Shown piece after piece: positions 18,097-37,782 of a stretch of DNA of 54,113 bases. The position numbers were made by a program, and so were the translations under genes. The DNA is taken from IMG/VR virus record IMGVR_UViG_3300021962_000141, positions 1 through 54,113 of that record, one strand, 5' to 3'. This DNA is from a virus. Taxonomy: Duplodnaviria > Caudoviricetes. Positions within the stretch are counted from its first letter, which is position 1, and each line of letters opens with the position of its first letter. The notes below the pieces were generated by a model, which searched no databases, had not been told where the DNA came from, and worked only from the letters and a program-made list of their open reading frames with translations.

Positions 18097-18350
18097 AACT
18101 GACTATTACTAAAAGCAAAAACTTCATAGAAGACTGTCGTCGTTACGAAAAAGCGATCAAAGAAACCAAAGACACAGAACTTGATAGCCTTTATAGAAGA
18201 TTTGTGTCTCAGGCACGATCGATGGATGCTTCAACAGATTCTATCGCAAATCTTTCAAACACTTCTCAAGAAAGAAACAAATTAAAATCTTTAAGAATCG
18301 ACATCGAGAAGAAAATTATGTCGTTGAAAGAAAAGATTCAACAGTCTTAA
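18093..18350 (+). CDS. Hypothetical helical protein
   Basis: 85-aa ORF coupled by ATGA overlap to the previous gene. Confidence 0.65.
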   Translation: MKLTITKSKNFIEDCRRYEKAIKETKDTELDSLYRRFVSQARSMDASTDSIANLSNTSQERNKLKSLRIDIEKKIMSLKEKIQQS

Positions 18351-19206
18351 ACTGATAATCTCCTAGCATACTTAACAACCTTGTGTTGTCTGAGCAGGTG
18401 TATTTTTGATATTGATTTATTAGTTCTCTAGGAAAATCAATTTCTTCTATATCTGCTGAATATTTTTCAGCCACTGCTTCGGCTACCTGTCGGAATGAAA
18501 CAGCAGAACCAGTTCCTAGGTTAAAAATCCCATTAAAATTTAAATCAAAAGATTTTAATTTAACATCAACTACATCATCAACACAGATGAAATCTCTTTG
18601 GAAGTTTTCACTGCCTCTAAATACTTTGATTTTTCCTGTGGTCTCGGCTTGATGTCTAAATTTTGTCACAGGACTGGCCTGATCTTTTTTGTGATTTTCA
18701 TTGTTGCCATATACATTAAAATATCTCCACCCTTGTATTCGAGCACCCGGATAATCTAATAGTGTCGAATACACATACTGATCTATTCTCATTTTGCTAG
18801 AAGCATATAAAGATCTGGGCATCAGCGGTTGATTTTCTTGGAAAGTATTGCTATCTCCGTATACCGATGCTGAACTAGCATAGGATAAAAATAAATTATT
18901 CTGTACTGCTTGGTCAATTAACCAATAACTAGGTTGTAGATTATATTGATCAATCCTCAATGGGTCTTTTTCAGTAGTGGAAGATATCGCTCCTTCGTGG
19001 AAGATAGCTTCCACTTTTAACCAATGATTGAATCTACCATAAAAATCATCAGTTGACATTATATCAGTAAATGTTAAATTTTTTAAGTTAGATTCTTTAT
19101 CTTGATTAATGTCGTCTACTATTAAAATATCAGAGACATATCGACTGTTCAATCTTTTAACAATATTAGAGCCAATGAATCCCGCTCCACCAGTTACGAC
19201 TATCAT
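18316..19206 (-). CDS. hldD: ADP-L-glycero-D-manno-heptose 6-epimerase (HldD/RfaD-like SDR)
   Basis: VTGGAGFIGSN, FHEGAISSTTE, YASSASVYG, YxxSK, RYFNVYG.NE.HK, RDFICVDDV, YQKYT. Confidence 0.92.
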   Translation of the reverse strand: MIVVTGGAGFIGSNIVKRLNSRYVSDILIVDDINQDKESNLKNLTFTDIMSTDDFYGRFNHWLKVEAIFHEGAISSTTEKDPLRIDQYNLQPSYWLIDQAVQNNLFLSYASSASVYGDSNTFQENQPLMPRSLYASSKMRIDQYVYSTLLDYPGARIQGWRYFNVYGNNENHKKDQASPVTKFRHQAETTGKIKVFRGSENFQRDFICVDDVVDVKLKSFDLNFNGIFNLGTGSAVSFRQVAEAVAEKYSADIEEIDFPRELINQYQKYTCSDNTRLLSMLGDYQFKTVESFLSTT

Positions 19207-19511
19207 TTAAAAAAATGCTCCGGATGAACAGACTTATCATCGATCCATACATCATAGTGTGGTTTACGTAGTTGAAGACTAGTATACTTTGCTCCCCAGT
19301 CGTTCATCTGTTTATGCGTGATTTCAGTCCTATCGATCCCCGAACGTGACCCACGTGCTGTGTAGTAATGTATTTCGTGACCTTCATCGAATAGCTGATT
19401 GATTTTAGCTATTCTATCCATGTAAGGTTTTGTTTTAGCATAGTCTACATTACCGTTGCTGTCAAATTCCATAGAACAAATAGTACCATCGATGTCAACA
19501 ATAAAAATCAT
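19203..19511 (-). CDS. Small capless HAD-superfamily phosphatase
   Basis: DIDGT motif I, YTARG motif II, KP..D.WIDDK motifs III/IV. Confidence 0.85.
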   Translation of the reverse strand: MIFIVDIDGTICSMEFDSNGNVDYAKTKPYMDRIAKINQLFDEGHEIHYYTARGSRSGIDRTEITHKQMNDWGAKYTSLQLRKPHYDVWIDDKSVHPEHFFK

Positions 19512-19876
19512 TTTTGGCTGTCTCCTGGAGCTAGTCTAAAATTGTCTTCGACTGAATCTGCTGTGCTGACTTCAAATATCATGGCACCGTCAGTCATTGC
19601 TTCCAGCTGATGAGGTTGGAGTGGTGGATTGTGCCACGTATCGCCTTCATTTAATTCTTGTTCATAGATTTTAGCGTCTCGGGTGTCAATCCAACGTAGT
19701 TTAAATTTTCCAGAATTTACGAACCAAGTTTCATCTTTGGCTCTATGAAAGTGCATAGAAAATTTATTTCCTGCCTTTTCAAAAACTAGAATCTTGCCGC
19801 AGTAGTGATCATTGGTGGCCCAAATTATTTCAAAGCCCCAGCCCTTATCAACTTTACCTGTTAGTCTTTGTGTCAT
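19508..19876 (-). CDS. Cupin protein, mannose-6-phosphate isomerase type II C-terminal-like (start corrected from 19906)
   Basis: KGWG.E, SMHFHRAKDETWFV, PP.QPHQL, FEVST; ATG 19876 overlaps the upstream TGA. Confidence 0.85.
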   Translation of the reverse strand: MTQRLTGKVDKGWGFEIIWATNDHYCGKILVFEKAGNKFSMHFHRAKDETWFVNSGKFKLRWIDTRDAKIYEQELNEGDTWHNPPLQPHQLEAMTDGAMIFEVSTADSVEDNFRLAPGDSQK

Positions 19877-20622
19877 TTTATTTCCTCTAATCTTGGAGCA
19901 TAGCATCCTACATGCTGTACTGTTATACTCGCAGCTACGGTGGCAAACTCCATAGCTGATTTAATATTGTTAGTGTTTAGATATCCGTAGGCGAGGGCTG
20001 CTAAAAATGTATCTCCTGCTCCGGTAACGTCAACAACTTCAACGCTGGGGGCAGACGTAGAAAACTCATGAAATACTGCTCTAGCCCCTTTGCCTCCTCG
20101 GGTAACAATAAGTCCCGAGCATTCGCTTTTTATTTTACTATATTCTAGTTCATTGATTTTAACCCACGCACCTTGTAATCTTTCTAGATCCGTTTTTTTC
20201 GTGTCAACAAAAACAGGAATCCTTGTAGCTATTGCCTCTTCGATTATGTCGTAGGAAACAGTTCCTTTGTTATAGTCGCTGATAACGATAGCATCATAAA
20301 CTTTAGGTATCGCAGTTTCGAATTCAATCGGTGGCGATATTAGATCAGTATCTATCCTAACGATCTGTTGTTTGCTGCGAATGTCTACTAGTCTTGTTTT
20401 TGTAGAAGTTTCTCCGTGGAGATAATTTACTTCACAGTCTAAGGCTTCTAGATTACGGGCCACATTGCCTGCCATGCCCGGCTTGCGTTCTTCATACTCG
20501 AACTTAAACACCGGAACTGGTGCTTCTGGGCTGATGCGATCAACTGTACCATACTGGTACACATCAACACAGTCATCACCGATTAGCAATATTTTGTATG
20601 ATCTTGGTTGTTGAATAGTCAT
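19873..20622 (-). CDS. hldA: D-glycero-D-manno-heptose-7-phosphate kinase (RfaE domain I, PfkB family)
   Basis: GD..VD.Y..G.VDRISPEAPVPV, GMAGNVARNL, KTR, ISDYNKG, VDVTGAGDTF. Confidence 0.93.
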   Translation of the reverse strand: MTIQQPRSYKILLIGDDCVDVYQYGTVDRISPEAPVPVFKFEYEERKPGMAGNVARNLEALDCEVNYLHGETSTKTRLVDIRSKQQIVRIDTDLISPPIEFETAIPKVYDAIVISDYNKGTVSYDIIEEAIATRIPVFVDTKKTDLERLQGAWVKINELEYSKIKSECSGLIVTRGGKGARAVFHEFSTSAPSVEVVDVTGAGDTFLAALAYGYLNTNNIKSAMEFATVAASITVQHVGCYAPRLEEIK

Positions 20623-20968
20623 CTAATATATCAAAAAATACGATTTCGTCACAGACAATGTCACCAACTATGGGCTTGCCCATATAATCACTGCCTTTGA
20701 CCATAATGTCGCAGGCTGCGACTAGGTTAATAAGTTCTACATCATTATTGAAAACAACAACTTCGTCAACTGCTTTTAAATTTTCAAGCATAAATGCTCT
20801 ATGCTTTTGGTTGTTGATTGGACGCTGTGGTCCTTTTAGTTGTCGTACTCGTTCGTCTGAATCGATCCCGACCATGAGATGGCCACCTAAACTTTTAGCG
20901 TAATTTAAAAGTTCGACGTGACCGGGATGAAGAATATCGAAAGTTCCATTAACAAAAATCAGACTCAT
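20576..20968 (-). CDS. hldC: Heptose-1-phosphate adenylyltransferase (RfaE domain II)
   Basis: NGTFDILHPGH, VGIDSDERVRQLKG..RPIN....R, VKGSDY, YSTTKII. Confidence 0.92.
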   Translation of the reverse strand: MSLIFVNGTFDILHPGHVELLNYAKSLGGHLMVGIDSDERVRQLKGPQRPINNQKHRAFMLENLKAVDEVVVFNNDVELINLVAACDIMVKGSDYMGKPIVGDIVCDEIVFFDILDDYSTTKIIQNIANR

Positions 20969-20994
20969 GCTGTAATTATACAGTCACGAGTCTG
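20951..20994 (-). terminator. Terminator-like hairpin spanning the -10 box and hldC start codon
   Basis: CAGACTCGTG-A-CTGTA-TAAT-TACAG-CATGAGTCTG followed by ATTTTTGTT. Confidence 0.65.
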
Positions 20995-21002
20995 TTTGTC
21001 AA
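20975..21002 (-). promoter_or_regulatory. Consensus sigma70 promoter for the heptose operon, leaderless arrangement
   Basis: TTGACA(20997-21002)-N16-TATAAT(20975-20980)-N6-ATG; no SD. Confidence 0.85.
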
Positions 21003-21006
21003 CCTT

Positions 21007-24000
21007 TTAGGCTTGTGCTTCAGACCAACGTAAAATAACGTTGGCGTTAACAGCAGCCCCCGAAACCTTATAGATATTGACAGCTAAAACATCTGGGCCG
21101 TTTGGAAAGGTTCCGCGACCGCCCAGTGTAGTATTAGTCAATTCTTTGAGTTCTGAAAGATCCAATTGGTCTGAATTTCCTGGTAAGCTGATGAATGAGA
21201 ATACCTGTTCGCCTGGCAGGGCATATGGTGGTTGTCCAAACTTGAATGTTATCGTGCTGGCTCCTGCTACCACAGCATTCGATGTCTGGGTGAACGTTAC
21301 AGTATAGTAACCAGTACCACCGAATGTTCGTAGGGCACTAACCGATGCTACTCGAGTACCAGCAGCAAATTTAGCATCAGATACCTCCGTACCAGCACCT
21401 GCTGAATAGGTGCTAACGAGCGTTTCCCACGATGCTTGTGTAAAATAAACAAAGTTTGTAACTGCGGTATTTTGAGACAGTGACATTGTTATTGTATTAT
21501 TAGCATTGACTGCCGAAGCAGTAGTCCTACTCAAGAATAATGTGTAGTATGGAATTGTATCAAAGGTTATGTTCTCGGACCCAGAAAGTGTTCCAATACA
21601 GTTATTGCTAAACGTCACTGAATAATAGCCTACTGAATTAAAAGTCCGTAAACTGCTAATGCTTGTGATCGTAGTTCCGCCAGTAAATTTACCAGAATCG
21701 TTAGTTAGTGTTCCTACTACAGGAACATCAACGGGCAGTGCTGTCCAACTGGCTGCGGTAAAGAATAAATTATTTGTGGTCGTTCTCGCACCGCCAAATG
21801 CTGTGTTGATCGTCTGCGAACTTAGCGGAAGATCGGAACTCAACCCCTGGTCCATCGTCACAGTATAGTATCTGTTCGGTGAGGTTCCTTGTACAGCCGA
21901 TACTGCTGTTACTGTAGTACTTGCTGGAAATGCTGAGGTCACTGAGAACCCGGTAGCAGTTACAGGATTGGTCATGGCATTCCAACTAGCTTCTGTAATA
22001 TTCAACGAAGTTTGACCAGCGACGTAGGCAGTAGAAATCGTTCCGTTATTATTAAATCCAGTGGCTGTCGAGTTAAATTGAACAAAGTTATTACCAGAAC
22101 CTGTTACAAGATAAGTTCCATTGTATTGATTCGGCTGTACGCCAGATACTGTAATTCGTGAGTTAACTGGGAATGGCGCATATCCCGGGTTATTAAAGAA
22201 TAATGTAGCTGTAACTCCGTTCCCTTGGGCAAATGTAGTACTAAAGGATCTAAAGAATGTAGACATCGATCCGGTCTGAGAAGCCAGCGTAGTAGCGATA
22301 GGGCTTGGACTTGTAGCGACCGAGGACACAGTTGTTCCAGATTGGAATTTAGTATCTGTGGTCGAAATAGCGAATCCAGCAGCCGCACCAGATGCGTTCC
22401 AGCTGGTCTGTGTAGCGTACACAAAAGATGACCCCGACGACCTGTTAAATGCTGTCTTATTCGGTACTGTTACGTTGGCTGTAGTTGTATTCAGAGCAGT
22501 AGCTGTCGATGTTGGCTGTGCTACGCCACCGCCCCAGTTTACAGAACCGCCCGGGGCGATCTGTGCGAAGCTTGGCTGTCCACCAGAAGCAACGCCTGAT
22601 AGTCCGCTCCAGATAATATCACTGGGATTAGATGGGTAGTTTTGAGGATTCAATACACCTTCAACGATGATACCACCTGTGCCTGTATCAGATGTAACAG
22701 CGATTTCTTTCAATAACAATTGAGCTCTGTTTAACAATTCTCTCTCACCAAGGTCGCCCACTACGGCATTTGAAACACTAGGTGCCAAGCGGATCAAGAA
22801 AGCAGTTGATTTGGTTGTACTAACACTAATACCAGTAGACGCATAGTTAAAAATGTATCCACGATCAAAGTCAAATAGACCGTCTGTTAAGAACGCAGAA
22901 CCCCAGTGGCTAATTAATGGAGTCGTTGTGTTGTTTAGCAATATAACTCCGGTGCCTGTCGAGTGATCGGCGGCAGTTCCTGCGGTAAAGTTTCTAGTAG
23001 CACCTGCGATAAACAGATCTAATTGTGCCGATCTAGAGCAGCCTGTTAACTTGTTAAGGTCAGTGTCTAATCCAGTATAAGCGATCATCTCGTTGTCGAC
23101 GTAGATTATACCAGTATTCGGAAACCCTGCTACACTTTCTAAAAATACTTCAGTTCCAGTATTACTTAGATTAGAAACCAATCTGCTAGTAGCCCCATAG
23201 TTTGAAACTTCATAACGAACAGGAAGGTTACCAGTACGCATATACGCTTCAGTGTTAACGTTGCTATTTCTCATACGGTGGGCAAACACATAATTACCAT
23301 CGGATCCCCGTAGCATGAAATCAATAAAACCAGCACCGTACCAGCTGTATTGAATACCGATCATCTGCATCTTGACAATATCGAGATCGTAACCACTCGG
23401 TCCGGTTCCGTCTAATCGATCTTTATTGAAATCTGATTGTTTAACTCTTACCTCACTAATCAAACTCATCTTGGCATTAGATACATTGTTAACACCACGA
23501 TAATCGGGGTTAACAGTCATCGAAGTCTGACTATCAACATGTGTGACTATATGAGTCATTCCACGAATGGTCACTGAATCGCCTGCCTTTACTTGATCTC
23601 TGAATCGGCTGTTTAGACCTGTTATTCTATTAGAGCCTGCGTTAACTGAAATAGTGCCGGCTAATTGTCTAGTCGATGTTCTTTGAACAGCCCATAATGT
23701 TTGACCGTCATATTCCCAGAAAATACCGTTTTGATCGTCGAATACTCCAGCACGAACGACAGCACCTTTCCACCGTAGTGTAGAAACTTGGCAGCTAAAA
23801 CTCAGTGTAGGTTTTCTCGAACCAACACGCTTTGTGGCAATGATCCTAAATGTACGTTCAGTGACGATTTCGTCTACTTCATAGTCTCCATCATACCCGC
23901 CTGTTGTTACTCCGCTAAGACGTATCACAGCACCCCGTTGTAGACCGTGGTCGTTGTCACCTAAAGTAATTTCGATAGTAGCACCAACTTCGACGTCTGT

Positions 24001-29695: not shown

Positions 29696-29701
29696 TTGGT
29701 G

Positions 29702-31267
29702 TTATAATCTGCCCACTACAACTTCAATGACGCCTTCTATGCCGTCAAAATCTTCGAGGGCTTTTCCAATTACTGTTCCTAATATAGGATCAGTGGACGG
29801 TCTAGCGTAACCATTACCACCACTAATCAACATGTCGCCTTTAGATATTTTTCCTCTAACTTTACAAGGAACTCTTCCCTGTAGTGCTAATTTTACAACG
29901 GTCTCTCCTCTTAGCTCATCGTTCATCACGAACGCAGGATCTGTAGATACAACACCAGCGACACGCCGAGTGGCGTCTTCTGCTAATGTTACTTCTTTGC
30001 TGCCGCCAAATTCTAAGACTGTGCCTGGTTCATAGGCGCGGTCTGCCAAATATTTTTCTGCCAAGTCCGCCCATTTTGCCGTTGCTGCGGTAACATTAAG
30101 TGTGCTGGTAACAACATCTAGTGTTACACCAGAACTGGCATAGAGGCTCTGTCCGGTAATAGTATCTGTTCCTTCCGCTATTACCATCGGATATATACCA
30201 TCGATTACTTCGGTAACAATAATTTCTGTAGCAGTTCCGCCAGTGCCACTTCCTCCTCCAGAACTGCCGGTGTTAGTAATAGTAATCCTATCACTGGTAG
30301 AATTAGTAGTTATTGATATTCCCGATCCTGCTACAAAAGTCAAAGTATCCGATGCCGAATCTGCTCGAATAGTCGACTGTCCTGCTACACTAATCGCACC
30401 GAACGCATTGGCAGATACGCCGCCACCACTGCCGCCACCAGAACTAGCCAACGTAATACTTCGATTTGAAGAATTGGTGGTTATTGTCATCCCCGAGCCG
30501 GCGATAAGTGTTAGATTATCGTTTAATGATATACTTTCAACATCATTTTCGCCTGATACAGAAATAGTGCCAAATGACTTAATTTCATAGCCGCCGACAG
30601 TGGTAGTTTCTGGAAGCTCTATTCCGCCATTTGAGTTCTTTGATATTGTTGCGCCGTCTATATTGATGGTATTTTTTAAATAAAGATCTCTAAATCTTCT
30701 TAGAGCTATACCGACATCAAATGATCCATCGACAGTTGGAGTTAATGTAGTACCAATAGCAGAAAGATCTGCTCCGCCGCCAGAATTACCGCCCCCGGGT
30801 ATACTGCCACCACTGCCACCACCACCGAGATCATCTTCATCAACGAGATAAGTCGGCGCTACTGGTCTATCTAGATCAGTTAGGGTAGCAAAATATTGAG
30901 CAAAGTAAATAGCACGAACACCTTCGTATTCCGGAATTATAGGAGATAATTTTAGACTTAGGTAACTGTCGCTGACCGTAGCAGAAACAGTAACTAGTGG
31001 ATCGTCTATCGAAGCACGGCCATAGATAGTATAGCTGGCCTGATCGGGCCTAGCTACTACTAGGATGGACATTGTTTCTTTTTTCTGAGAATTAAATTCT
31101 ATCGAAACAATGTAATGTGCGGCAGCGAAATCACCGACATACCATCTGTCAATTTCAGTGTTTTCAAAAATTTGACGCCAAGGGCCCCTGTTGTAAAAAT
31201 TCACACCGTTTTTTAAGAACAGTGTATTCTTAACTCCAGGGCCAAAATATTTGGTAAAATCAGTCAT
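29702..31267 (-). CDS. Tail fibre-type protein with C-terminal intramolecular chaperone / Peptidase G2-like domain
   Basis: ADLAEKY..D..YEPGTV, VAGVVSTDP, ALQGRVPCKV, IGKALE; two AFG.ISV.G...D.LT.VAGSG..ITT repeats. Confidence 0.8.
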   Translation of the reverse strand: MTDFTKYFGPGVKNTLFLKNGVNFYNRGPWRQIFENTEIDRWYVGDFAAAHYIVSIEFNSQKKETMSILVVARPDQASYTIYGRASIDDPLVTVSATVSDSYLSLKLSPIIPEYEGVRAIYFAQYFATLTDLDRPVAPTYLVDEDDLGGGGSGGSIPGGGNSGGGADLSAIGTTLTPTVDGSFDVGIALRRFRDLYLKNTINIDGATISKNSNGGIELPETTTVGGYEIKSFGTISVSGENDVESISLNDNLTLIAGSGMTITTNSSNRSITLASSGGGSGGGVSANAFGAISVAGQSTIRADSASDTLTFVAGSGISITTNSTSDRITITNTGSSGGGSGTGGTATEIIVTEVIDGIYPMVIAEGTDTITGQSLYASSGVTLDVVTSTLNVTAATAKWADLAEKYLADRAYEPGTVLEFGGSKEVTLAEDATRRVAGVVSTDPAFVMNDELRGETVVKLALQGRVPCKVRGKISKGDMLISGGNGYARPSTDPILGTVIGKALEDFDGIEGVIEVVVGRL

Positions 31268-31288
31268 AGTTACGCTCGTGTTATCTTA

Positions 31289-31294
31289 TATTTA
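31289..31294 (-). promoter_or_regulatory. T4-like late promoter
   Basis: TAAATA between a terminator and ATG 31267. Confidence 0.6.
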
Positions 31295-31312
31295 ACTGAT
31301 TTTTATATAAAG

Positions 31313-31340
31313 TAAAAACCCCCTAAATCGGGGGTTTTTA
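31313..31340 (-). terminator. Rho-independent terminator after carbamoyltransferase (symmetric)
   Basis: TAAAAACCCCC-N6-GGGGGTTTTTA. Confidence 0.88.
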
Positions 31341-33149
31341 TTAGCTATTGACTATCTTTATCAGCTTACCATATTCAGGCAAGAAAAGATATTCTATATC
31401 ACTTTTTACCAGCGTTTCAATGGCATCGTCTAGCGTTTCTACTAAAGGATCACCACCTAGATTAAAGCTAGTATTAAACACGATAGGAATGCCTGTTTGA
31501 TCATAAAATTCTTTGATTAGATCGTAATAATGAGGATTCTGGTCGCGTTTCACAGTCTGTATCCTACAAGTACCGTCCACGTGTATAATGCTCGGAATCT
31601 TTTCAGCTACACCAGGCTTACAATTTACTGCATACATCATGTGAGGAGTTTCGTCCATACCGCGTAGATCAAACCACTCATGAACATGTTCATGTATGAT
31701 AGATCCAGCGAATGGGCGGAAATATTCACGACGTTTAACCGTGTTTACAAAGTCCTTGCCATCTTCAAAAGTTGGGTCAAATAGCACAGAACGATTACCC
31801 AAAGCACGTGGCCCATTTTCTGAACGCCCTTGGAATATAGTAACAATATTCTTTTCACGTAGAAGTTTAACAACATCTTTGTTAGTAGCATCTAAGACTT
31901 CACCGCCAGCATATTGTACTTTTTCTTTGATTTCTCTTTCGGTATAAGTGTATTGTGGGCCTAGGTACAGCGTGTCTAGCTTTTGTTTTTCTCTACTGTC
32001 TGACAAAGCTCTCCAGAACATCATGCCAGCCCCCATAGCTGTGCCAGCGTCATTACTGATCGGTTCAACATAAAGATTAATTCCTTCATCTTTGAGCTGC
32101 TCGAGATAATGATAGTTAGCCACACAGTTTAGACCGTAACCGCCACTGATTACAACATTTTTCTTTCCGCTTAGTGCTACTGCTTTTTTAATTAAGCGGA
32201 CAACCTGTTCCTGTGTCTGTGTCTGACAAGCATAGGCAAGATCTCTGCGACTCTGTAGCTTGGTAACATCCTCGCCTTCTTTAGGTAATTCGTCAAGATA
32301 GTCAAACAAAGCACTATTGACGATAGAAGAAGATGGATAGGCAGGCACGATTAGATTCCTATTAGACAACGGAACCTTCGAAGTAAAATCGAACAACTTA
32401 GGAATCTTATCGTTGGCTTGACCATAAGGAAATAGACCCATGGTTTTTCCTGCTTCGATAGACGAAAACCCACAATATTCGGTGACAGCCTCGTAGGTCT
32501 TAACTATACCTGCTCTATCCGAAAGCCATGCTTCATGAAAATCTCCAGCTTCTCCGAACTGATCCGATGGGCACTGGTCCATGTGTGTTCCAGCGACTGG
32601 TTCTTTGGCGCCGTAATTTTTATAAAGCGTTTTAAACTGTGATGGATAGCCGCAGTCAATGATTGATTCAACTTCCCATACCCAAAGAGGTTCATTGCCG
32701 TACATCAATTGGATGAATGTACCGGCACCGTCGACGATCAATGCTACAGCATCGTCAAAGCCGCTGCGATAAAAAGCACAAGCGGCATGTAATTTATGAT
32801 GCATGAAACTTAAATCAACTACTTGAGGATGATTATAATTGTCCTCTTTACGGCTGATCAAACCTAGCTTTCTTGCTAGGCCTGTGTAGACATCGTCACC
32901 GCTAAAATCAATTCTTCCAGCAGTGTCCTGTAATTTTTGTGTGTGAGCGACTACAAGATAATCTAGTTTATCGGTATACTCGAGTATTTTAACCATAGAG
33001 GCCAACGGACCTCCGTCATACTTTTGCCTTGTTAATCGTTCTTCTTCGATGGAAAAAACGATTTCTCCGTCTTTAAAAAGGCATACACCTGCGTTATGCC
33101 CACGTGCTATGGCTGCGATCCAGCCTGAATTAAGTTTCGGTTCGTTCAT
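31341..33149 (-). CDS. Carbamoyltransferase, NodU/CmcH family
   Basis: EEERLTRQKYD, HHKLHA, IVDGAG, GKTMGL.PYG, SGG.GLNCVAN, DAGTAMGA, GRSENGPRALGNRS, KRRE.FRPFA, HVDGTCRIQTV, NTSFN. Confidence 0.95.
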   Translation of the reverse strand: MNEPKLNSGWIAAIARGHNAGVCLFKDGEIVFSIEEERLTRQKYDGGPLASMVKILEYTDKLDYLVVAHTQKLQDTAGRIDFSGDDVYTGLARKLGLISRKEDNYNHPQVVDLSFMHHKLHAACAFYRSGFDDAVALIVDGAGTFIQLMYGNEPLWVWEVESIIDCGYPSQFKTLYKNYGAKEPVAGTHMDQCPSDQFGEAGDFHEAWLSDRAGIVKTYEAVTEYCGFSSIEAGKTMGLFPYGQANDKIPKLFDFTSKVPLSNRNLIVPAYPSSSIVNSALFDYLDELPKEGEDVTKLQSRRDLAYACQTQTQEQVVRLIKKAVALSGKKNVVISGGYGLNCVANYHYLEQLKDEGINLYVEPISNDAGTAMGAGMMFWRALSDSREKQKLDTLYLGPQYTYTEREIKEKVQYAGGEVLDATNKDVVKLLREKNIVTIFQGRSENGPRALGNRSVLFDPTFEDGKDFVNTVKRREYFRPFAGSIIHEHVHEWFDLRGMDETPHMMYAVNCKPGVAEKIPSIIHVDGTCRIQTVKRDQNPHYYDLIKEFYDQTGIPIVFNTSFNLGGDPLVETLDDAIETLVKSDIEYLFLPEYGKLIKIVNS

Positions 33150-34087
33150 TTTTTATGTTTTCCTTGGACAGCTTCTACAACATACGTTTGTATTTCTGGA
33201 GTCATGGCCATGATAGATTCGTGTTTTCTATCAACTCTTTCATCCATAGTAATTCTAATAGGGCTATATTCTCTAGTTTCTTCGCCCATATCAAGCACAG
33301 TGAAAAGTTTACTGTCTGGGTATGATACATTGATCGGATATGTAGATCCGAATAACACAGTAGATGGTTTGTCAACGCAGTAGGCTAAATGTTGACCAAG
33401 ACTATCACAGCCTAGGAAATGATCAGCATATTTGATAATAGCTGCCCATTGACGCATAGAAACGTTCTCTGGCATAGCGATTTCATCTTTGAATTTTTCA
33501 TCAGTAAAGTCTATTTTAAATTCACTCATTAAGATCACGCCGTAGTCTTTTTCTTGAAGTTTTTTAATTAGGGCTTTGGTATCCTTGAATTCGATACTTC
33601 TAGAAGTAGGGTCGACTAGAGAATCATCAACTACTTGTATGCCTCTACCAAAAGGTTGGAATATAACGATCTTGCTTTTCTTCAGCTGTTTCTTAACATC
33701 ACCGATTAGCTTTCTTCCTGTAAGTAGCTCGTCCTTGCTTAAGACTAGGGTGGGTTTAGGTAAACTTCTTATACCTTTCTTATTAATCTCAATGTCAAAT
33801 GCCTGTGCTATTGAACACTGTTGGTTGTAATATTCCCAGATTCTGTAAGGTTCTGGACTCACGATATCTCGATTTTTAATCTTTTCTGCGAATAGATTTT
33901 TATGCCAAACATCGTAGGTGCGGCTGTCTAATGTAGGATGTCCTTTGAACACATCAGTGCCGCCTTCGCAGATTATGATAAAATCTTTATCGCCGGATTC
34001 TTTTTCGTATAATTCAAATGCGGGTATTGCACATAACATACGGCCCGCACCACCGTTTAGAAAAAATGCTTTAGAGCGTTGTTCCAT
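33146..34087 (-). CDS. GT-B glycosyltransferase, GT9 (heptosyltransferase)-like
   Basis: C-terminal WAAIIKYADHFLGCDSLGQHLAYCVDKPSTVLFGST matches the GT9 donor-binding signature; N-terminal GGAGR...IP. Confidence 0.8.
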   Translation of the reverse strand: MEQRSKAFFLNGGAGRMLCAIPAFELYEKESGDKDFIIICEGGTDVFKGHPTLDSRTYDVWHKNLFAEKIKNRDIVSPEPYRIWEYYNQQCSIAQAFDIEINKKGIRSLPKPTLVLSKDELLTGRKLIGDVKKQLKKSKIVIFQPFGRGIQVVDDSLVDPTSRSIEFKDTKALIKKLQEKDYGVILMSEFKIDFTDEKFKDEIAMPENVSMRQWAAIIKYADHFLGCDSLGQHLAYCVDKPSTVLFGSTYPINVSYPDSKLFTVLDMGEETREYSPIRITMDERVDRKHESIMAMTPEIQTYVVEAVQGKHKK

Positions 34088-34092
34088 TTAAA

Positions 34093-34162
34093 CTCCAAGA
34101 AAATAGGTTCTGTCTTACTATGTATCACTACAATAATAACACAGAACCTAATCTTGGTTCAA
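34093..34162 (-). promoter_or_regulatory. sigma70-like promoter within a long inverted repeat that reaches the GT9 SD
   Basis: TTGAAC-N18-(TGn)TATTAT; TAGGTTCTGT/ACAGAACCTA and CCAAGA/TCTTGG arms; SD GGAG at 34093-34096. Confidence 0.6.
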
Positions 34163-34169
34163 TGGTTTT

Positions 34170-34817
34170 TTAATAATATGTTGGTATATTATTTGAAAAT
34201 GGGATTTTCCAATGATCGATTCCTGCGTATCGTCTTTCCAAATCACGCAACCATGCTACATGTTCTTCAAGTGCTTCGCGATCCTCGTCTGAGTAGTCGT
34301 TAGCCTGTAGACTCTGTTCAATCTGATTAGCCATTCTTAGATAATTTTCAATCATGCTTGCTTTGGTTACAGCATGTAATCTGTATTCAGGACCAACAAA
34401 TTGATTGTTAACATATTTTAATGACTGACCATAAAAACATTGTCCGATCGCTCCTGTGTTATCATCGTAATGATATTCATAGGACCATGTGTTACCGTCG
34501 GCATCTGTTAGATTATCTACGAAGTTTGGGACTTCCCCTGTTTCGTAGCTGTGTAAAAGATAGGCCGCAGCGAACGGATGTTGACCGGCATCAATCTTAT
34601 AAAAAGTAGTTGCTGGATCGTCGTCTGTAAGATTATCAAAATCTAATTCAGCTTCGGTTTCTCCGCGTCTAGCAACGTATTTGATTTCGCCTGTTGCGTC
34701 GATAACACAGATAGCGAAATAACGCGGACCTGTGTAGACCGCATTCTGTACCTTGTTTAGAGCCGTGGTGTTTTTGTATGGCTCATCTGGTAGTAAAAAT
34801 GTAAAATTTTTTCTCAT
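34170..34817 (-). CDS. Hypothetical protein, C-terminus like tail-fibre assembly chaperones
   Basis: ALEEHVAWLRDL...W.IPF resembles the YRQ.LRDLP...WP motif; follows the Cys-rich genes; SD GAGG. Confidence 0.6.
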   Translation of the reverse strand: MRKNFTFLLPDEPYKNTTALNKVQNAVYTGPRYFAICVIDATGEIKYVARRGETEAELDFDNLTDDDPATTFYKIDAGQHPFAAAYLLHSYETGEVPNFVDNLTDADGNTWSYEYHYDDNTGAIGQCFYGQSLKYVNNQFVGPEYRLHAVTKASMIENYLRMANQIEQSLQANDYSDEDREALEEHVAWLRDLERRYAGIDHWKIPFSNNIPTYY

Positions 34818-34833
34818 AATCTTCCTCTAACAC

Positions 34834-34839
34834 TATTTA
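34834..34839 (-). promoter_or_regulatory. Possible late promoter overlapping the upstream TAA stop
   Basis: TAAATA 16 nt before ATG 34817. Confidence 0.45.
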
Positions 34840-35805
34840 TGTAAAGAATCTAATTCTAACAGCACCCCAGCCGCCACGACCAGCATGGTCACGAACGCCT
34901 GGACATGGGCTAGTTGGATATCCGCCAGTTGCTGGGGGAGCATAGTGCATACATCCCTGCATCTCGTAACATCCGCATTTTCTATCTGATCTCCAGCAAT
35001 AGTTATGTCCGATACCCATTGTAGGTGATCTACGCATCGCAGAGAACGCATTTGTTAACTGCATCAATGGTTGACCTGACCAGTTTGAATGTCTGTTGTC
35101 ATCTTCTGCTCCGAACGCTGCTACGTTGTTTGCTCCGCAGCTATAAAATCCTGCAGGCGATGCTACGTGATATTGGAAACAGCAAGGACATTGTGGCAAG
35201 CAGCCAAAGAATACAGAACAACTAAAGTGACCGCAACAGTTTACATCGCCGCCGTAGCTACAAGCAATCCATATACCGTTGAAATAGTTACAGATGATAC
35301 CGCAGTTGTCGTTAAATGGCCCTGTATAGCAATGACTTTGGTTTACAAAACAACAGAACAATGATGTTCCTGTCGAACACATACCGCGGCCACCTGCTCC
35401 ACCTTGGGCACAGATACAACTGTTTTGTGTATTGTTACAGGCTGTCCAACATACCTGTGTTGGGTCCGAACAGCCTCTAAAACATAATGCTGAACTGTTG
35501 CCACAGCTATTACCAATTGTGCCTCTAACAAAATCGCCTGTGCTAACACAGATAGTTTTCTTCGAATACGCACCGGCGTTTCCTGGAGTACCTCCACCGC
35601 AGCAACACATCTGAGCACCTGACCCACCAGCACCCCAAACTTCTATGACCGCTTTACCGGTCGACGGAGGGTTCCAACAAAATCCGTTACAGAAATTTGT
35701 GTACATGGTACCGGGAGTAAAAACATAGATCCTTCCGGTTTCTAAATTTTCTTCTACTCTACCAGTAGTTCTAGATCTAACTAAGTTTTGAAACGATGTA
35801 GGCAT
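34837..35805 (-). CDS. Cys/Gly-rich protein, paralogue 3, 322 aa (start corrected from 35907)
   Basis: MPTSF start shared with both paralogues; IEVWGAGGSG...CCCGGG...GAYSKK and GG.GAVRIRF Gly-rich-domain frame; about 33 Cys by hand count. Confidence 0.88.
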   Translation of the reverse strand: MPTSFQNLVRSRTTGRVEENLETGRIYVFTPGTMYTNFCNGFCWNPPSTGKAVIEVWGAGGSGAQMCCCGGGTPGNAGAYSKKTICVSTGDFVRGTIGNSCGNSSALCFRGCSDPTQVCWTACNNTQNSCICAQGGAGGRGMCSTGTSLFCCFVNQSHCYTGPFNDNCGIICNYFNGIWIACSYGGDVNCCGHFSCSVFFGCLPQCPCCFQYHVASPAGFYSCGANNVAAFGAEDDNRHSNWSGQPLMQLTNAFSAMRRSPTMGIGHNYCWRSDRKCGCYEMQGCMHYAPPATGGYPTSPCPGVRDHAGRGGWGAVRIRFFT

Positions 35806-36575
35806 TATTTTATCTCTTATAAGTCTCTTACTGTACCATCTTGTACGAATCTGATACGGATAGCACCATGGCCTCCACGATAAGCATGATCTCGAACGTC
35901 GGGACATGGAAATGGTGGCAGGCCTGGAAATCCGGGCGGAACAAATTGAACACAGCCGTTGCCGTCGTAACAGCCGCAGGTTCTGCTACCAGTCCAACAC
36001 GAGTGAGCGGGATTAAGTCCCATGCCAGGTTGTCGACCAGCTACGTTCAGACCATACAGAAATCCGTTTAGAGCCATCCCACTCCAGTTAGAATGTCCGC
36101 TGTCACCTTCGTTGGTATAGGTAATTTCTCCACCGCAGTCGGAATAATATCCTGGAGGAGTTGCCACGTGGAATATTGTTGAACACGGACAACTAGGTGT
36201 ACAGCCAAAAAAGCTAGCACGACTAAATCCGCCTCTTGAATTTACATCGCCGCCAAACGCATCAGCACAACAGGAAGCTGTGGCACTACCATAATTACAG
36301 ATAATACCGCAGTTAGCGTTAAATGGTCCTGTGCCGCAGAAGCCTGCAGCATAAAAACAGCACCACAAGGATGTTCCTGTTGAACAATAAGTTGTTCCTC
36401 CACGGCCGCCTTGGGCACACATACATCCGTTTGTAGTTGTTGATCTCCAACATACACCAGTTGCTTCTGAGCAACCCCTAAAGCATAAATCGTTTGAGTT
36501 ACCGCAACTGAAGCCGACCGATCCTGTGATCAAGCAGCCCGAAGCTACACAGATAGTTTTCTTCGAATACGCACC
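35546..36575. repeat. 29-bp exact repeat between Cys-rich paralogues (35546-35574 and 36547-36575)
   Basis: acacagatagttttcttcgaatacgcacc in both. Confidence 0.85.
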
Positions 36576-36812
36576 AGGGTTTCCTGGGATTCCTCCACCG
36601 CAACAGCACATTTTAGCACCCGAACCACCAGCACCCCAAATTTCGATAGTTGCGATACCGTTACCTGGTGATACCCAGCAAACTTCCCCGCACATTTTAG
36701 TACGGACGTTACCGTGAGTGTAGGCCCAAATACGACCTTGCTCGAGATTTTCTTCTTCGTAGGCAATAAACGGTAATTTTGCTTGGACAAGACCTTTAAA
36801 TGATGTTGGCAT
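35817..36812 (-). CDS. Cys/Gly-rich protein, paralogue 2
   Basis: Same architecture; about 30 Cys in 331 aa by hand count. Confidence 0.88.
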   Translation of the reverse strand: MPTSFKGLVQAKLPFIAYEEENLEQGRIWAYTHGNVRTKMCGEVCWVSPGNGIATIEIWGAGGSGAKMCCCGGGIPGNPGAYSKKTICVASGCLITGSVGFSCGNSNDLCFRGCSEATGVCWRSTTTNGCMCAQGGRGGTTYCSTGTSLWCCFYAAGFCGTGPFNANCGIICNYGSATASCCADAFGGDVNSRGGFSRASFFGCTPSCPCSTIFHVATPPGYYSDCGGEITYTNEGDSGHSNWSGMALNGFLYGLNVAGRQPGMGLNPAHSCWTGSRTCGCYDGNGCVQFVPPGFPGLPPFPCPDVRDHAYRGGHGAIRIRFVQDGTVRDL

Positions 36813-36813
36813 C

Positions 36814-37782
36814 TTATTGTCCTTCTATAAATCTAATACGGATAGCACCGTGTCCGCCACGTCGAGCGTGGTCTCTAACATCGCCACATGGATGAGGTGC
36901 CATTCCTGGATATCCTGGTCCTACATAAGTGTAGCAACCTTCGTTTTCGTAACAGCCGCAGCCGCCTCCAAACCCCCAACAATAGGCCCATGGGATGCCG
37001 TGTGTTGGTTGGCGCGACTGTGCGTTTAGTGCTGATTGATGTTGGTGAGCACCTTGGCCCGACCAGTTTGAAAATTCATTGTTGTTTTCTGTACCAAATA
37101 CCACAACGCCGCCGCATTTAGATACGTACCCTGGAGGTGTTGCCACATGATAGGTATAAGAACAAATACATGGACCTTGGCATCCTAAGAATGCTGTACA
37201 TGAAAATCCGCCGCAGCGATTAACGTCGCCGCCGTAACCGCAGGCGATCCAGATGCCGCCAAAATAATTACAGATTGTTCCGCAGTTGTCGTTGTATGGT
37301 CCACGAGCACAGTAGCCGTTGGCAGCAAAACAACAATATAATGATGATCCTGTAGTACAGAAACTTCTACCACCTGCTCCACCTTGAGCACACATACAGC
37401 CCGAAGCACCGCAGTTTCCTGTCCATGTTACTCCAGTTGGATCTGAGCAGCCTCGGAAACAGATAGCATCTGCGTTACCACAGCTCAGGCCTACTGCTCC
37501 GCAGATATAACAGCCTGATTCGACTTTTATTGCTTTTTTAGAATAAGCACCTGCGTTGCCAGGAAGACCGCCACCGCAGCAGCACATTTTAGCACCGGAT
37601 CCTCCAGCACCCCAAATTTCAATGACTGCTGTACCTCTTGCGGGTGCTTTCCAACAGATCTGATAGTTGGTATAGTTACTGCCCGGAGTAAAGACCCAGA
37701 TGCGACCACGCTCGAGGTGTTCCTCAGTAGCGTAGATCCCGTCTCCTTTGATCGATACTAGATTTCTAAATGATGTCGGCAT
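36814..37782 (-). CDS. Cys/Gly-rich protein, paralogue 1
   Basis: Same architecture; about 30 Cys in 322 aa by hand count; SD AGGA. Confidence 0.88.
   Translation of the reverse strand: MPTSFRNLVSIKGDGIYATEEHLERGRIWVFTPGSNYTNYQICWKAPARGTAVIEIWGAGGSGAKMCCCGGGLPGNAGAYSKKAIKVESGCYICGAVGLSCGNADAICFRGCSDPTGVTWTGNCGASGCMCAQGGAGGRSFCTTGSSLYCCFAANGYCARGPYNDNCGTICNYFGGIWIACGYGGDVNRCGGFSCTAFLGCQGPCICSYTYHVATPPGYVSKCGGVVVFGTENNNEFSNWSGQGAHQHQSALNAQSRQPTHGIPWAYCWGFGGGCGCYENEGCYTYVGPGYPGMAPHPCGDVRDHARRGGHGAIRIRFIEGQ

Follow-up and report, generated by a model that had tools for sequence, protein, structure and literature searches.

A cyanophage fibre region with enzymes seemingly able to make ADP-heptose, attach heptose and add carbamoyl

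According to the available part of PMC8005017, the GT9 enzymes WaaC and WaaF and the carbamoyltransferase WapO (PA5005) give rise to 7-O-carbamoyl-HepII in the Pseudomonas LPS inner core, a documented precedent for the carbamoylated heptose that the first-pass annotation had proposed for the DNA studied here. Protein heptosylation is described in excerpts of PMC4358343 for TibC, which O-heptosylates Ser on an adhesin in the cytoplasm with ADP-heptose. Marine Synechococcus LPS is stated to contain neither heptose nor Kdo (PMC4515613 in part, citing Snyder 2009), so a phage of such a host would require the entire donor pathway.

The gene set considered here is already in print as cyanophage 'LPS genes' (T4-GC 302-308; PMC3037559, PMC7378029, each available in part). 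Four of the genes were reported as co-occurring LPS genes in 2010 (PMC3037559), and their published names include LPS genes, cell-wall genes and possible 'stuffer DNA'; in the accessible portions of these texts, supplements aside, the GT9-like and carbamoyltransferase genes are not tied to the heptose genes. PeSLs, composites of a terminator and a sigma70-type early promoter that border variable gene cassettes (PMC4122927), have been proposed to mediate modular shuffling (PMC4122927; PMC2839356); the word 'cyanophage' is absent from the available part of PMC4122927.

Donor, transfer and carbamoylation genes

The window, meaning the whole 54,113-nt stretch analysed here, comes from a marine T4-like cyanomyovirus and is a fragment with an estimated completeness of 16%. 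The first-pass annotation had placed ADP-heptose-type donor genes at 18316-20968 and a GT9-like transferase with a carbamoyltransferase at 31341-34087, and this observation is confirmed: a five-gene module and both genes of the pair lie there on the minus strand, separated by ~10 kb of fibre genes. The interpretation built on it, a carbamoylated heptose decoration most simply of the phage's fibres or adhesins, is partly supported.

18316-19206, minus strand: HldD-like ADP-glyceromanno-heptose 6-epimerase, 296 aa (TIGR02197, PF01370)
19203-19511, minus strand: small HAD phosphatase, 102 aa, candidate GmhB substitute (DIDGT motif)
19508-19906, minus strand: metal-site cupin, 132 aa, candidate sedoheptulose-7-phosphate isomerase (3-His/1-Glu site)
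19873-20622, minus strand: PfkB-type heptose-7-phosphate kinase-like protein, 249 aa (TIGR02198, PF00294)
20576-20968, minus strand: heptose-1-phosphate adenylyltransferase-like protein, 130 aa (TIGR02199, PF01467)
20960-21002, minus strand: PeSL-type element, adenylyltransferase side (TTGACA-16-TATAAT and 10-pair hairpin)
31313-31340, minus strand: intrinsic terminator of the GT9-carbamoyltransferase unit (11-pair stem and T run)
31341-33149, minus strand: TobZ/NodU-family O-carbamoyltransferase, 602 aa (PF16861, PF02543, PDB 7xb6)
33146-34087, minus strand: GT9-fold glycosyltransferase of a divergent family, 313 aa (predicted structure, PF01075)
34104-34162, minus strand: PeSL-type element, GT9 side (TTGAAC-18-TATTAT and 10-pair hairpin, T run, GGAG)

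The epimerase-like protein matches TIGR02197 with an E of 4.5e-81 and 272.4 bits (cut-off 274.6), the adenylyltransferase-like protein matches TIGR02199 (E 6.3e-37, 126.6 bits, below the cut-off of 181.5), and the kinase-like protein, which at 249 aa is shorter than HldE domain I, matches TIGR02198 (E 3.1e-46, 157.9 bits, below the cut-off of 345). That no heptose-pathway match reaches its NCBIfam equivalog cut-off counts against the explanation that we consider best. The HAD phosphatase matches PDB 9iqw, a 'capsule biosynthesis protein' (E 1.1e-12), 1xpj (E 0.014) and TIGR01689, capsule biosynthesis phosphatase (E 4.2e-4). RefSeq labels relatives of the phosphatase 'phosphoheptose isomerase' and those of the cupin 'cysteine dioxygenase'.

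We found no gmhA in the window, and none in 5/5 complete relatives. Given that GmhA is absent and that the cupin is the sole spare enzyme of the module, the cupin probably takes its place. His52, His54, Glu59 and His99 are unchanged across 12 cupin sequences, and the sub-threshold families that recur among the members, Lyx_isomer in 12/12 and MannoseP_isomer in 9/12, are sugar ketol-isomerases. With Foldseek, the structure model (pLDDT 88.8) retrieves generic cupins, among them D-lyxose isomerases and one phosphomannose isomerase; its first-ranked neighbours, quercetinase and oxalate decarboxylase, count against the isomerase reading, which is supported in turn by S-SM2 and P-TIM68, where the five heptose genes, cupin included, are kept together.

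The GT9-like transferase named in the first-pass annotation has a predicted GT9 heptosyltransferase fold: the top matches of its structure model (pLDDT 95.8) are GT9 throughout by both Foldseek and VIA. VIA gives Z scores of 23.2 for 3tov, 21.0 for WaaF, 19.9 for TibC and 19.1 for WaaC, with every GT9 structure in the range 19-23 and the next GT-B at 11.5; the GT9-fold structural subunits of plant NDH-PSI complexes score 18.5-18.9. The protein matches PF01075 with 25.1 bits (cut-off 22), and the HMM alignment places its donor-side motif GxDSxGQH against vDTGlsH of WaaC. Across 73 GT9-like sequences, this donor-binding motif does not vary, nor do many residues of the cleft. A near-invariant Arg16 appears, in a weak HMM alignment, at the position of the catalytic Asp13 of WaaC; the reaction could accordingly be a different one, or the protein something other than a classical transferase. 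Its 5 Cys are scattered and none is conserved. Relatives carry additional tailoring genes, with ~300-aa paralogues in 29/93 loci and one GT8 fusion.

The carbamoyltransferase has a Kae1-like N-terminal and a YrdC-like C-terminal domain and matches PF16861 (E 7e-58, 195 bits), PF02543 (E 4.1e-26, 93 bits) and PDB 7xb6 (E 3.8e-59), as well as GdmN and TobZ. Its ORF and that of the GT9-like protein overlap by 4 bases. The first-pass annotation had suggested checking co-occurrence across phages, and the pair is strictly coupled: the carbamoyltransferase is present in 96/96 loci with the GT9-like gene (duplicate loci counted), and orthologues of the two proteins fall in identical phage records (23/23). 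An HldD-like gene is present in 22 of these 23 records, the lone exception being a 4-kb fragment; among 10 long contigs, 5 have an HldD-like gene above 220 bits, including 2/2 with a completeness of 90% or more.

The genes follow one another without a break in S-CAM1 and P-SSM2, starting with GT9-like and carbamoyltransferase and continuing with adenylyltransferase, kinase, HAD, cupin and epimerase, which upholds the functional link drawn earlier between the two clusters. The two halves form one cassette, a sugar module of seven enzymes that falls into two transcription units in this window.

Fibre-gene context and promoter-hairpin elements

The two clusters lie among the following genes of the fibre block.

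21007-29094, minus strand: Ser/Thr-rich structural (fibre-like) protein, 2695 aa (21.1% Ser+Thr)
29104-29679, minus strand: Ser/Thr-rich fibre-block protein, 191 aa (composition)
29702-31267, minus strand: fibre-like protein, 521 aa (PHROG matches)
34170-34817, minus strand: acidic protein, 215 aa, possible tail-fibre assembly chaperone (ESM Atlas, position)
34837-37782, minus strand: three tandem Cys/Gly-rich paralogues, ~322-331 aa each, candidate fibre-tip proteins (phrog_4205)
37803-38479, minus strand: two small fibre-related proteins, 110 and 106 aa (tail/tail-fibre PHROG matches)

The neighbours are indeed Ser/Thr-rich (20-21% Ser+Thr in the 2695-, 521- and 191-aa proteins) and Cys-rich (9.1-9.8% Cys in the three paralogues), as first described. 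The 2695-aa protein has no Pfam match, and its homologues come after the carbamoyltransferase in most loci; the C-terminal part of the 521-aa protein matches phrog_19602, tail fiber protein (E 9.3e-7), and also phrog_6427. For the 215-aa protein, the ESM Atlas gives Phage_tail_APC (0.90) and Caudo_TAP (0.87) as leads; it is 23% identical to its positional counterpart in S-CAM1, and the gene at its position in a related locus (L014) matches phrog_4912, tail fiber assembly (E 2.1e-14). The motif IEIWGAGG..CCCGG is common to the Cys/Gly-rich paralogues and their counterparts in S-CAM1 and P-SSM2. The true start of ORF 34837-35907 is probably an internal Met at ~35805, since the paralogues and a 92%-identical relative begin MPTSF. 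The 110- and 106-aa genes keep their upstream position in most loci.

In nearly all loci, the GT9-carbamoyltransferase pair has fibre, Cys-rich and chaperone-like genes on its flanks. The same fibre-type flanks recur where GT9 identity is 38-41%, in three loci for which an earlier locus survey had detected only the carbamoyltransferase, and an N4-like Vibrio phage carries a 25%-identical GT9-like homologue between two tail-fibre genes. Placement among virion genes holds in the window, but not for the heptose module of S-SM2 and P-TIM68, which lies distant from fibre genes in large polysaccharide-type clusters without this GT9-like gene; this counts against the fibre reading.

A sigma70-like promoter inside a hairpin is present at both units, as the first-pass annotation had noticed; the class is already known, both elements matching the PeSL promoter-terminator cassettes of T4-like phages. 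At the heptose unit, TTGACA-16-TATAAT (21002-20975) agrees with the consensus at 12/12 positions, and the 3' arm of the hairpin (20994-20960) overlies the ATG, 6 nt past the -10. At the GT9 unit, TTGAAC-18-TATTAT (34162-34133) agrees at 9/12 and the hairpin (34150-34104) encloses the -10. As a class, promoter-like sites are not enriched in 17500-37400 (46 versus 52.4 +/- 7.0 in shuffles), so the promoter case depends on the one site with a full match and on conservation: stems of at least 10 pairs occur in 42/84 distinct GT9-upstream regions compared with 11.8 in shuffles, and compensatory changes are seen at all 11 stem pairs in 23 sequences chosen for having hairpins. The neighbouring structural genes are instead preceded by a terminator and TAAATA motifs; because the predicted early-type promoters are unlike these, co-expression with the fibres is not favoured.

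Proposed pathway, acceptor and alternatives

From family assignments, we infer every step of the following pathway. The cupin would isomerise sedoheptulose-7-phosphate in GmhA's stead, the short PfkB kinase would phosphorylate C1, and the small HAD phosphatase would remove the 7-phosphate. The adenylyltransferase would then activate the sugar and the HldD-like enzyme would epimerise it to ADP-L-glycero-beta-D-manno-heptose, from which the GT9-fold enzyme would transfer heptose; the coupled TobZ/NodU-type enzyme would O-carbamoylate it at the expense of carbamoyl phosphate and ATP. The acceptor would belong to the tail-fibre apparatus of the phage itself, as a Cys-rich tip paralogue or a Ser/Thr-rich fibre protein, and would be modified in the cytoplasm ahead of assembly. 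Each unit would be driven from a PeSL-type element, in which a terminator hairpin encloses a sigma70 promoter of the early type, and such elements would account for the shuffling of cassette halves among fibre genes.

We tentatively favour the phage's own fibre proteins as acceptor, a choice that approaches an even call, because the tail-fibre and chaperone context persists over 38%-92% GT9 identity and in N4-like vibriophages. This context fits virion decoration and, equally, a receptor-masking enzyme tied to receptor-binding genes. In the latter case, carbamoyl-heptose would be placed on a glycan of the host envelope, either LPS or some surface glycoconjugate, that the adjacent fibres recognise, so that superinfection is blocked and progeny are not lost on debris, and the genes would stay beside receptor-binding genes since specificity must co-evolve. 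Host-surface modification is the default in the available parts of the literature (PMC3037559; PMC12801897), the solved enzymes WaaC and WaaF have LPS as their target, and a receptor-masking enzyme would be just as likely to be syntenic with receptor-binding genes; the predicted early-type promoters, which distinguish the units from late structural neighbours, and the polysaccharide-type clusters of S-SM2 and P-TIM68 point the same way. We nevertheless consider receptor masking rather unlikely: the canonical GT9 acceptor, a Kdo/heptose inner core, is missing from marine Synechococcus LPS as excerpted from PMC4515613, the constant companions encode fibre-tip and chaperone-like proteins, not export or lipid-carrier functions, and no flippase, ligase or membrane protein is found among the scanned ORFs of 18316-38479.

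The first-pass annotation had also raised DNA hypermodification, in which a hydroxymethylated base in the phage's DNA would receive heptose from a GT-B enzyme. Excerpts of bioRxiv 10.1101/2023.12.21.572611 report a metavirome cluster, with a phage GT-B enzyme, HAD/kinase and cytidylyltransferase, that yields mono- and di-heptosyl-5hmC, and phage pathways for DNA arabinosylation include small HAD phosphatases of the 1xpj type (PMC13326640, in part). This alternative is weakened by the complete genomes of the cassette-bearing relatives S-CAM1 and P-SSM2, where PF00303 (ThyA/dCMP hydroxymethylase family) and PF00145 (C5 methylase) are each found in 0/2; PF12851 is also found in 0/2, with a control that gave no signal either. 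The fold, moreover, is GT9 and not T4 beta-glucosyltransferase among the matches listed, and the cassette genes sit in fibre modules in all the loci sampled, which leaves DNA as a very improbable acceptor. The product could instead have nothing to do with fibres, being a small glycoside or else a carbamoyl-heptose glycan that is free or lipid-linked, or the GT9-like protein could be a non-catalytic sugar-binding or assembly factor. The Arg seemingly at the catalytic-Asp position, the structural role of the GT9-fold NDH subunits and the extra tailoring genes of relatives speak for this; the invariance of the donor-binding motif and cleft residues speaks against it, as does the strict coupling to a carbamoyltransferase and donor pathway, which is hard to explain without catalysis. 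We regard it as improbable.

Comparison with known systems

Modification of a phage's own virion proteins by phage-encoded glycosyltransferase genes was reportedly described in mycobacteriophages by Freeman et al. in 2023, where the sugars, GT families and hosts are said to differ from those of the cyanophage module. To our knowledge, those mycobacteriophages have neither a donor pathway nor a carbamoyltransferase.

The Pseudomonas core pathway, as far as the available part of its description goes, likewise joins a GT9 transferase to a carbamoyltransferase-family enzyme to give a carbamoylated L,D-heptose. Its acceptor, however, is the Kdo2-lipid A core, and the cyanobacterial host is described as being without such a core (PMC4515613, in part); the phage GT9-like protein is a very distant one by sequence (PF01075, 25 bits), with an apparent Arg for the Asp13 base of WaaC. 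TibC/Aah (BAHT family) share the GT9-type fold, but the phage protein aligns with TibC residues 90-398 only and lacks both the N-terminal beta-barrel and the four-Cys iron finger, and Arg again apparently replaces the Asp base.

Like the PeSLs of RB49/phi1, PST/T4 and nt-1/KVP40, in the part of their description available, the elements of the window are composites of a terminator and an early sigma70-type promoter. They differ in that the hairpin loop holds the -10, with the -35 within or before the 5' arm, and in that they bracket a sugar-modification cassette in a cyanophage fibre module. The cassette itself corresponds to cyanomyovirus T4-GC 302-308 (P-SSM2 PSSM2_307-313; S-CAM1 SXBG_00216-00222; also in S-SSM7, S-CAM3, P-SSM5 and Sf-FS3), with orthologues at 38-62% identity, a shared gene order where contiguous and the same fibre-gene flanks. 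In the window, by contrast, it is split by the fibre genes, with a PeSL-type promoter before each half.

Recurrence of a heptose and carbamoyltransferase cassette

PHROG scans place T4-like myovirus genes around the cassette (ssDNA-binding protein, large terminase, tail sheath, tail tube, dNMP kinase, neck, and sheath-stabiliser), and the nearest cultured relatives of its sugar genes are the marine cyanomyoviruses Sf-FS3, S-CAM1, S-CAM3, S-SSM7, P-SSM2, and P-SSM5. At the DNA level, similarity to phage records amounts to a single 170-bp match and nothing else. The viral record is a 54-kb fragment estimated to be 16% complete, so gene absences in the window mean little. We also noticed a small unlisted ORF (minus strand, about 1240-1440) that lies between 1582-3720 and the gene for the ssDNA-binding protein; it encodes a peptide rich in Lys, Ala, and Pro whose N terminus (MKSIVVLTAALFAATTAFA...) resembles a signal peptide, and a strong terminator (1232-1202) follows it.

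The two transferase genes overlap by 4 bases:

33146-34087, minus strand: GT9-like transferase of 313 aa (PF01075, GT9 fold)
31341-33149, minus strand: TobZ/NodU-type O-carbamoyltransferase (PF02543 and PF16861)

The carbamoyltransferase has both domains of the NodU/CmcH/TobZ family above the Pfam cut-offs: a Kae1-like N domain (PF02543, 92.7 bits; cut-off 24) and a YrdC-like C domain (PF16861, 195.4 bits; cut-off 27). It matches solved carbamoyltransferases (PDB 7xb6, GdmN, TobZ, and NovN-type chains) with E-values from 1e-44 to 4e-59, and scores 136.9 with the NodU equivalog model, far under the cut-off of 1000.

The heptose module (five minus-strand ORFs, 18316-20968) and this transferase pair are one cassette. 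In the cultured phages S-CAM1 and P-SSM2, the genes are contiguous, with tail-fibre genes on the flanks, and run in the order GT9-like, carbamoyltransferase, adenylyltransferase, kinase, small HAD, cupin, and then the epimerase on the opposite strand. A GT9-like orthologue (at least 39% identity) occurs in 23 of the 55 matching records of the phage collection; an orthologous carbamoyltransferase (at least 44% identity) is found in exactly the same 23, and an HldD-like gene in 22 of them, the exception being a 4-kb fragment. Likewise, all 96 loci that we collected with a GT9-like gene (2 cultured, 15 MAG contigs, and 79 viral contigs, not de-duplicated) carry the carbamoyltransferase by tblastn. 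It lies downstream on the same strand in 93 of them, within about 300 nt in 64 of these 93; in the other 29, paralogous genes of about 300 aa (about 290-308 aa) intervene, one or two per locus. At least one heptose-module gene falls inside the 10-kb flanks of 19/96 loci. Half of the ten long contigs have a strong HldD-like gene (> 220 bits), including both that are at least 90% complete, and the five without one are fragments, 40-60% complete.

The first-pass annotation had named an ADP-heptose-type donor operon, a GT9-like transferase, and a NodU/CmcH carbamoyltransferase here, and these families are indeed present at the two clusters, the heptose matches being divergent. Its idea that they form one system holds for the GT9-like gene with its carbamoyltransferase and the HldD-like gene, and fails in the other direction: in S-SM2 and P-TIM68, the five heptose genes sit together within large clusters of polysaccharide type (close to hli genes in P-TIM68), and neither phage is among the 23 records, so the heptose module does not imply a GT9-like orthologue.

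The inserted genes of about 300 aa, seen in loci L034, L042, L048, L079, L082, L087-L091 and others of the collection, and absent from the window, share the N terminus MxRLFxFGCS(F/Y)T..WP(T/S)WAD..GLGNRAIAER. A Pfam search assigned them to no family; from the N-terminal 'FGCSFT' motif they appear SGNH-like by eye, an unconfirmed assignment. Fifteen 'cellular' hits (loci L003-L017) are MAG contigs labelled Chitinophagales, Methanobacteriota, Neomarinimicrobiota, Actinomycetota, and others. A cellular origin for their GT9-carbamoyltransferase pairs seems unlikely: the phyla are unrelated, and the same phage fibre genes surround all 15. They are probably cyanophage contigs mis-binned into MAGs and, read as such, give no cellular context.

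Candidate donor pathway and the GT9-like enzyme

The canonical pathway to ADP-L-glycero-beta-D-manno-heptose uses GmhA, a SIS-type sedoheptulose-7-phosphate isomerase, followed by HldE (or HldA and HldC), GmhB, and HldD. The HldE and HldD equivalog models are the best matches of the phage kinase, adenylyltransferase, and epimerase, all three under the curated cut-offs: the HldD-like epimerase scores 272.4 bits (E 4.5e-81) against an NCBIfam cut-off of 274.6, the kinase 157.9 bits (E 3.1e-46) against 345 for HldE domain I, and the adenylyltransferase 126.6 bits (E 6.3e-37) against 181.5 for HldE domain II. We therefore treat them as divergent relatives, not certified orthologues. The small HAD phosphatase carries a DIDGT motif and matches PDB 9iqw, a 'capsule biosynthesis protein' (E 1.1e-12).

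The gmhA model (TIGR00441) had no match in the window or in any of five complete relatives (S-CAM1, P-SSM2, S-SM2, P-TIM68, and a 100%-complete UViG); as a control, it matched in 10 of 14 reference genomes. The conserved module has one enzyme left over, the cupin, and one step left over, the ketose-aldose isomerisation. The metal site of the cupin (His52, His54, Glu59, and His99) is invariant in 12 sequences, down to 37% identity. Beyond the generic Cupin_1 and Cupin_2, the commonest Pfam matches of the family are sugar ketol-isomerases, all sub-threshold (Lyx_isomer in 12/12 members and MannoseP_isomer in 9/12). A fold search with the cupin model (pLDDT 88.8) did not single out sugar isomerases; generic cupins came first, and lower down were D-lyxose isomerases (ranks 8, 11, 17, and 31), CapF (rank 14), and a phosphomannose isomerase (rank 44). 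These data are consistent with the cupin being a GmhA substitute and do not decide the matter; we hold it to be likely, by elimination and by guilt by association.

Several RefSeq labels in S-CAM1 and P-SSM2 (loci L001 and L002) look misassigned: 'phosphoheptose isomerase' is attached to the HAD-phosphatase-like protein and 'cysteine dioxygenase' to the cupin. The label 'bifunctional kinase/adenylyltransferase' sits on a protein that is an adenylyltransferase only.

The LPS of marine Synechococcus WH8102 and CC9311 is reported to contain no heptose or Kdo (review PMC4515613, citing Snyder et al. 2009). Host LPS without heptose would account for the presence of a complete donor pathway in the phage, and host LPS without both sugars would make the canonical GT9 acceptor unavailable.

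The GT9-like protein barely passes the Pfam GT9 model (PF01075, 25.1 bits against a gathering cut-off of 22, over residues 171-255 only) and is far under the NCBIfam cut-offs for the heptosyltransferase I, III, and RfaQ models; a PDB search with the single sequence yielded nothing useful. Its AlphaFold2 model (pLDDT 95.8) predicts a two-Rossmann GT-B fold closest to solved GT9 structures, and the solved GT9 entries listed all head both the Foldseek and VIA-align lists. VIA Z-scores are 23.2 for the Veillonella GT9 3tov (rmsd 3.6, 283 aligned), 21.0 for WaaF, 19.9 for TibC, 19.1 for WaaC, and 18.5-18.9 for plant NDH GT9-like subunits; the best GT-B enzyme outside GT9 reaches 11.5.

A full-library search gave 409 clusters (50% identity) at E <= 0.001, from which we aligned 73 sequences; the family is common, comprising 2744 of 3332 scored candidates at that threshold. 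The locus scan used a 15-sequence alignment, the 73-sequence profile being too diverse. On the donor side, the phage GvDSvgqH motif aligns with WaaC vDTGlsH and WaaF nDSGlmH in the profile alignment, and D228 and H233 are invariant across the 73 sequences; in WaaC, vDTGlsH is the C-terminal donor-binding motif and includes Asp261. Near the N terminus, Gly12, Gly13, Gly15, and Arg16 are at least 90% conserved. HMMER sets the phage 'GGaGRvicaiPAl' opposite WaaC 'SSMGDVLHTLPAL', with the near-invariant Arg16 on Asp13, the N-terminal catalytic Asp of WaaC, in a segment that scores only -2.0 bits. The counterpart base in TibC is reported as Asp110 (PMC4358343). If the Arg16/Asp13 alignment is real, the phage family may use another base, for example Glu79, which is near-invariant beside the invariant Pro80 and Tyr81, or a nucleophile needing none. 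It is co-occurrence with the ADP-heptose module that points to ADP-heptose as the donor.

When we sought longer fused forms of the GT9-like protein, we found one 552-aa protein that looks unrelated. A metagenome protein of 558 aa (P0265) has a GT8 domain (PF01501, E 3e-12) fused to a GT9-like domain, an arrangement suggesting that some relatives may build more than a monosaccharide.

Promoter elements, fibre context and the acceptor

Both halves of the cassette, and one gene outside it, are preceded by predicted elements of the promoter-early stem-loop (PeSL) type:

21002-20960, minus strand: PeSL-type element of the heptose unit, 12/12 sigma70 consensus and hairpin
34162-34104, minus strand: PeSL-type element of the GT9 unit, TTGAAC-18-TATTAT and hairpin
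14192-14245, minus strand: third PeSL-like site, upstream of the dNMP kinase gene, TTGACC-17-TATAAT

The heptose-unit promoter is the only 12/12 sigma70 consensus within 17500-37400, and its -10 and the ATG both lie in a 10-pair hairpin; in the GT9 unit, the -10 sits within a 10-pair hairpin, with a T run and GGAG after it. In each, a predicted sigma70-type promoter and a terminator-like stem-loop share an intergenic spacer at a cassette border. The neighbouring structural genes are instead preceded by plain terminators and TAAATA-type motifs, which resemble the T4 late consensus. A sigma70-like promoter within a hairpin before each unit had been claimed from the sequence; the sites are there, and stems of at least 10 pairs occur in 42 of 84 distinct GT9-upstream regions, compared to 11.8 in shuffles. 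RNAalifold on 23 sequences picked for having hairpins gave 11 pairs, with compensatory double changes in 11/11 and a conserved ATATAAT in the loop. PeSLs, described in T4-like phages as stem-loops that combine a terminator with an early promoter, are proposed mediators of modular shuffling (PMC4122927; PMC2839356). PeSL identity would fit the differing placement of the cassette halves among phages and, by sequence alone, would predict early expression; our literature search, supplements aside, returned nothing usable on the published expression timing of the cassette genes. At the dNMP kinase site, the -10 pairs with the Shine-Dalgarno/ATG region in a 12-pair hairpin that would hide the start on read-through transcripts.

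The virion-gene setting described in the first-pass annotation was borne out: Ser+Thr make up 20-21% of the 2695-, 521-, and 191-aa proteins, and Cys 9.1-9.8% of three paralogues at 34837-37782. The block is nearly constant across loci with 55% to 92% GT9 identity, running from a large fibre protein through two small fibre proteins, one to three Cys/Gly-rich phrog_4205 proteins, a 215-aa protein, the GT9-like protein, and the carbamoyltransferase to more fibre proteins. For the 215-aa protein, the ESM Atlas gives a lead to tail assembly chaperones (0.90 and 0.87). Fibre context also extends to three loci at 38-41% GT9 identity where the initial survey showed the carbamoyltransferase only: at L012 there are a tail fibre and a phrog_4205 protein, at L014 a tail-fibre assembly protein immediately upstream (E 2.1e-14), and at L016 a tail-fibre-assembly-like protein upstream. 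The N4-like Vibrio phages (31 records), which form an independent lineage, keep a 25%-identical GT9-like homologue; the single record inspected has a tail-fibre gene on each side of it, and no donor genes. Hosts of these phages make ADP-heptose themselves.

A tblastn search with a Cys-rich paralogue found no matches, probably because of the low-complexity filter, and pairwise BLASTP with the S-CAM1 and P-SSM2 counterparts aligned the Gly/Cys motif only. The listed 356-aa ORF at 34837-35907 (minus strand) overlaps the next paralogue by 91 nt, and its first 34 residues look spurious; since the paralogues and a 92%-identical relative start MPTSF, translation probably begins near 35805, for a product of 322 aa. 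The giant structural proteins at 21007-29094 and 38492-44488 (minus strand) contain a repeated helical motif, KCxRDxGYxxDAxxxDxxYGGN, with no Pfam match (about 5 copies in the 2695-aa protein and 2 in the 1998-aa protein).

Virion fibre proteins of the phage are our tentative choice of acceptor, at a little short of even chances. Linkage to receptor-binding genes would also be expected if the cassette modified a host surface or receptor and so masked it, and the predicted early-type promoters suit receptor masking at least as well as fibre decoration; we hold receptor masking to be rather unlikely. Another product, or a non-catalytic role of the GT9-like protein, seems improbable. DNA glycosylation has a precedent in the heptosyl-5hmC reported from a phage GT-B enzyme (bioRxiv 10.1101/2023.12.21.572611), but neither a ThyA/hydroxymethylase-family gene nor a C5-methylase gene is present in the complete genomes of S-CAM1 and P-SSM2, and we regard DNA glycosylation as very improbable.

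If fibres are the acceptor, these cyanomyoviruses may encode a self-contained protein glycosylation system, in which GmhA would be replaced by a non-orthologous, cupin-type sedoheptulose-7-phosphate isomerase that feeds ADP-heptose synthesis, and a GT9 variant without the usual Asp base would act with the carbamoyltransferase to attach carbamoyl-heptose to the Cys-rich, receptor-binding tips of the phage's own fibres. Taken whole, from cupin to fibre tip, this chain is possible and still doubtful.

Implications and comparison with known systems

T4-like cyanophages are among the most abundant marine viruses, and their fibre modules determine which strains of Prochlorococcus and Synechococcus they kill. 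If the module decorates fibres, virion glycans would need a place in models of cyanophage host range and stability; should it mask a receptor instead, it would be a new superinfection-exclusion chemistry. The fibre-tip reading, if true, would make this the first phage-encoded protein heptosylation and a way of tuning host recognition in very abundant ocean viruses. Two points of enzymology are testable: the cupin as GmhA substitute and a GT9 enzyme apparently without its Asp base.

The module is real and recurrent, and the genes themselves are already in print as LPS genes. Sullivan et al. 2010 place T4-GC 304, 305, 307, and 308 among LPS genes co-occurring in P-SSM2, S-SM2, and S-SSM7, and ask whether these are functional or 'stuffer DNA' (PMC3037559); a 2020 genome note calls them heptose-related LPS genes (PMC7378029), and a 2025 paper still reads such genes as host-surface or DNA modification (PMC12801897). 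Under either fibre decoration or receptor masking, genes that have passed for 20 years as 'LPS genes or stuffer DNA' would gain an assigned function. No paper in our literature search names the acceptor or connects virion glycosylation with the GT9-like and carbamoyltransferase genes; virion-proteome supplements, outside this search, could bear on the point.

Precedents are described for the chemistry, in the carbamoyl-heptose of the Pseudomonas core made by WaaC/WaaF and WapO (PMC8005017), and for protein heptosylation, in TibC/Aah (PMC4358343). [quoted passage not shown] In contrast, the phage GT9-like protein, at 313 aa, aligns to TibC 90-398 only, and none of its 5 Cys is conserved; with the alignment so confined and no conserved Cys cluster, we rejected it as a member of the BAHT family.
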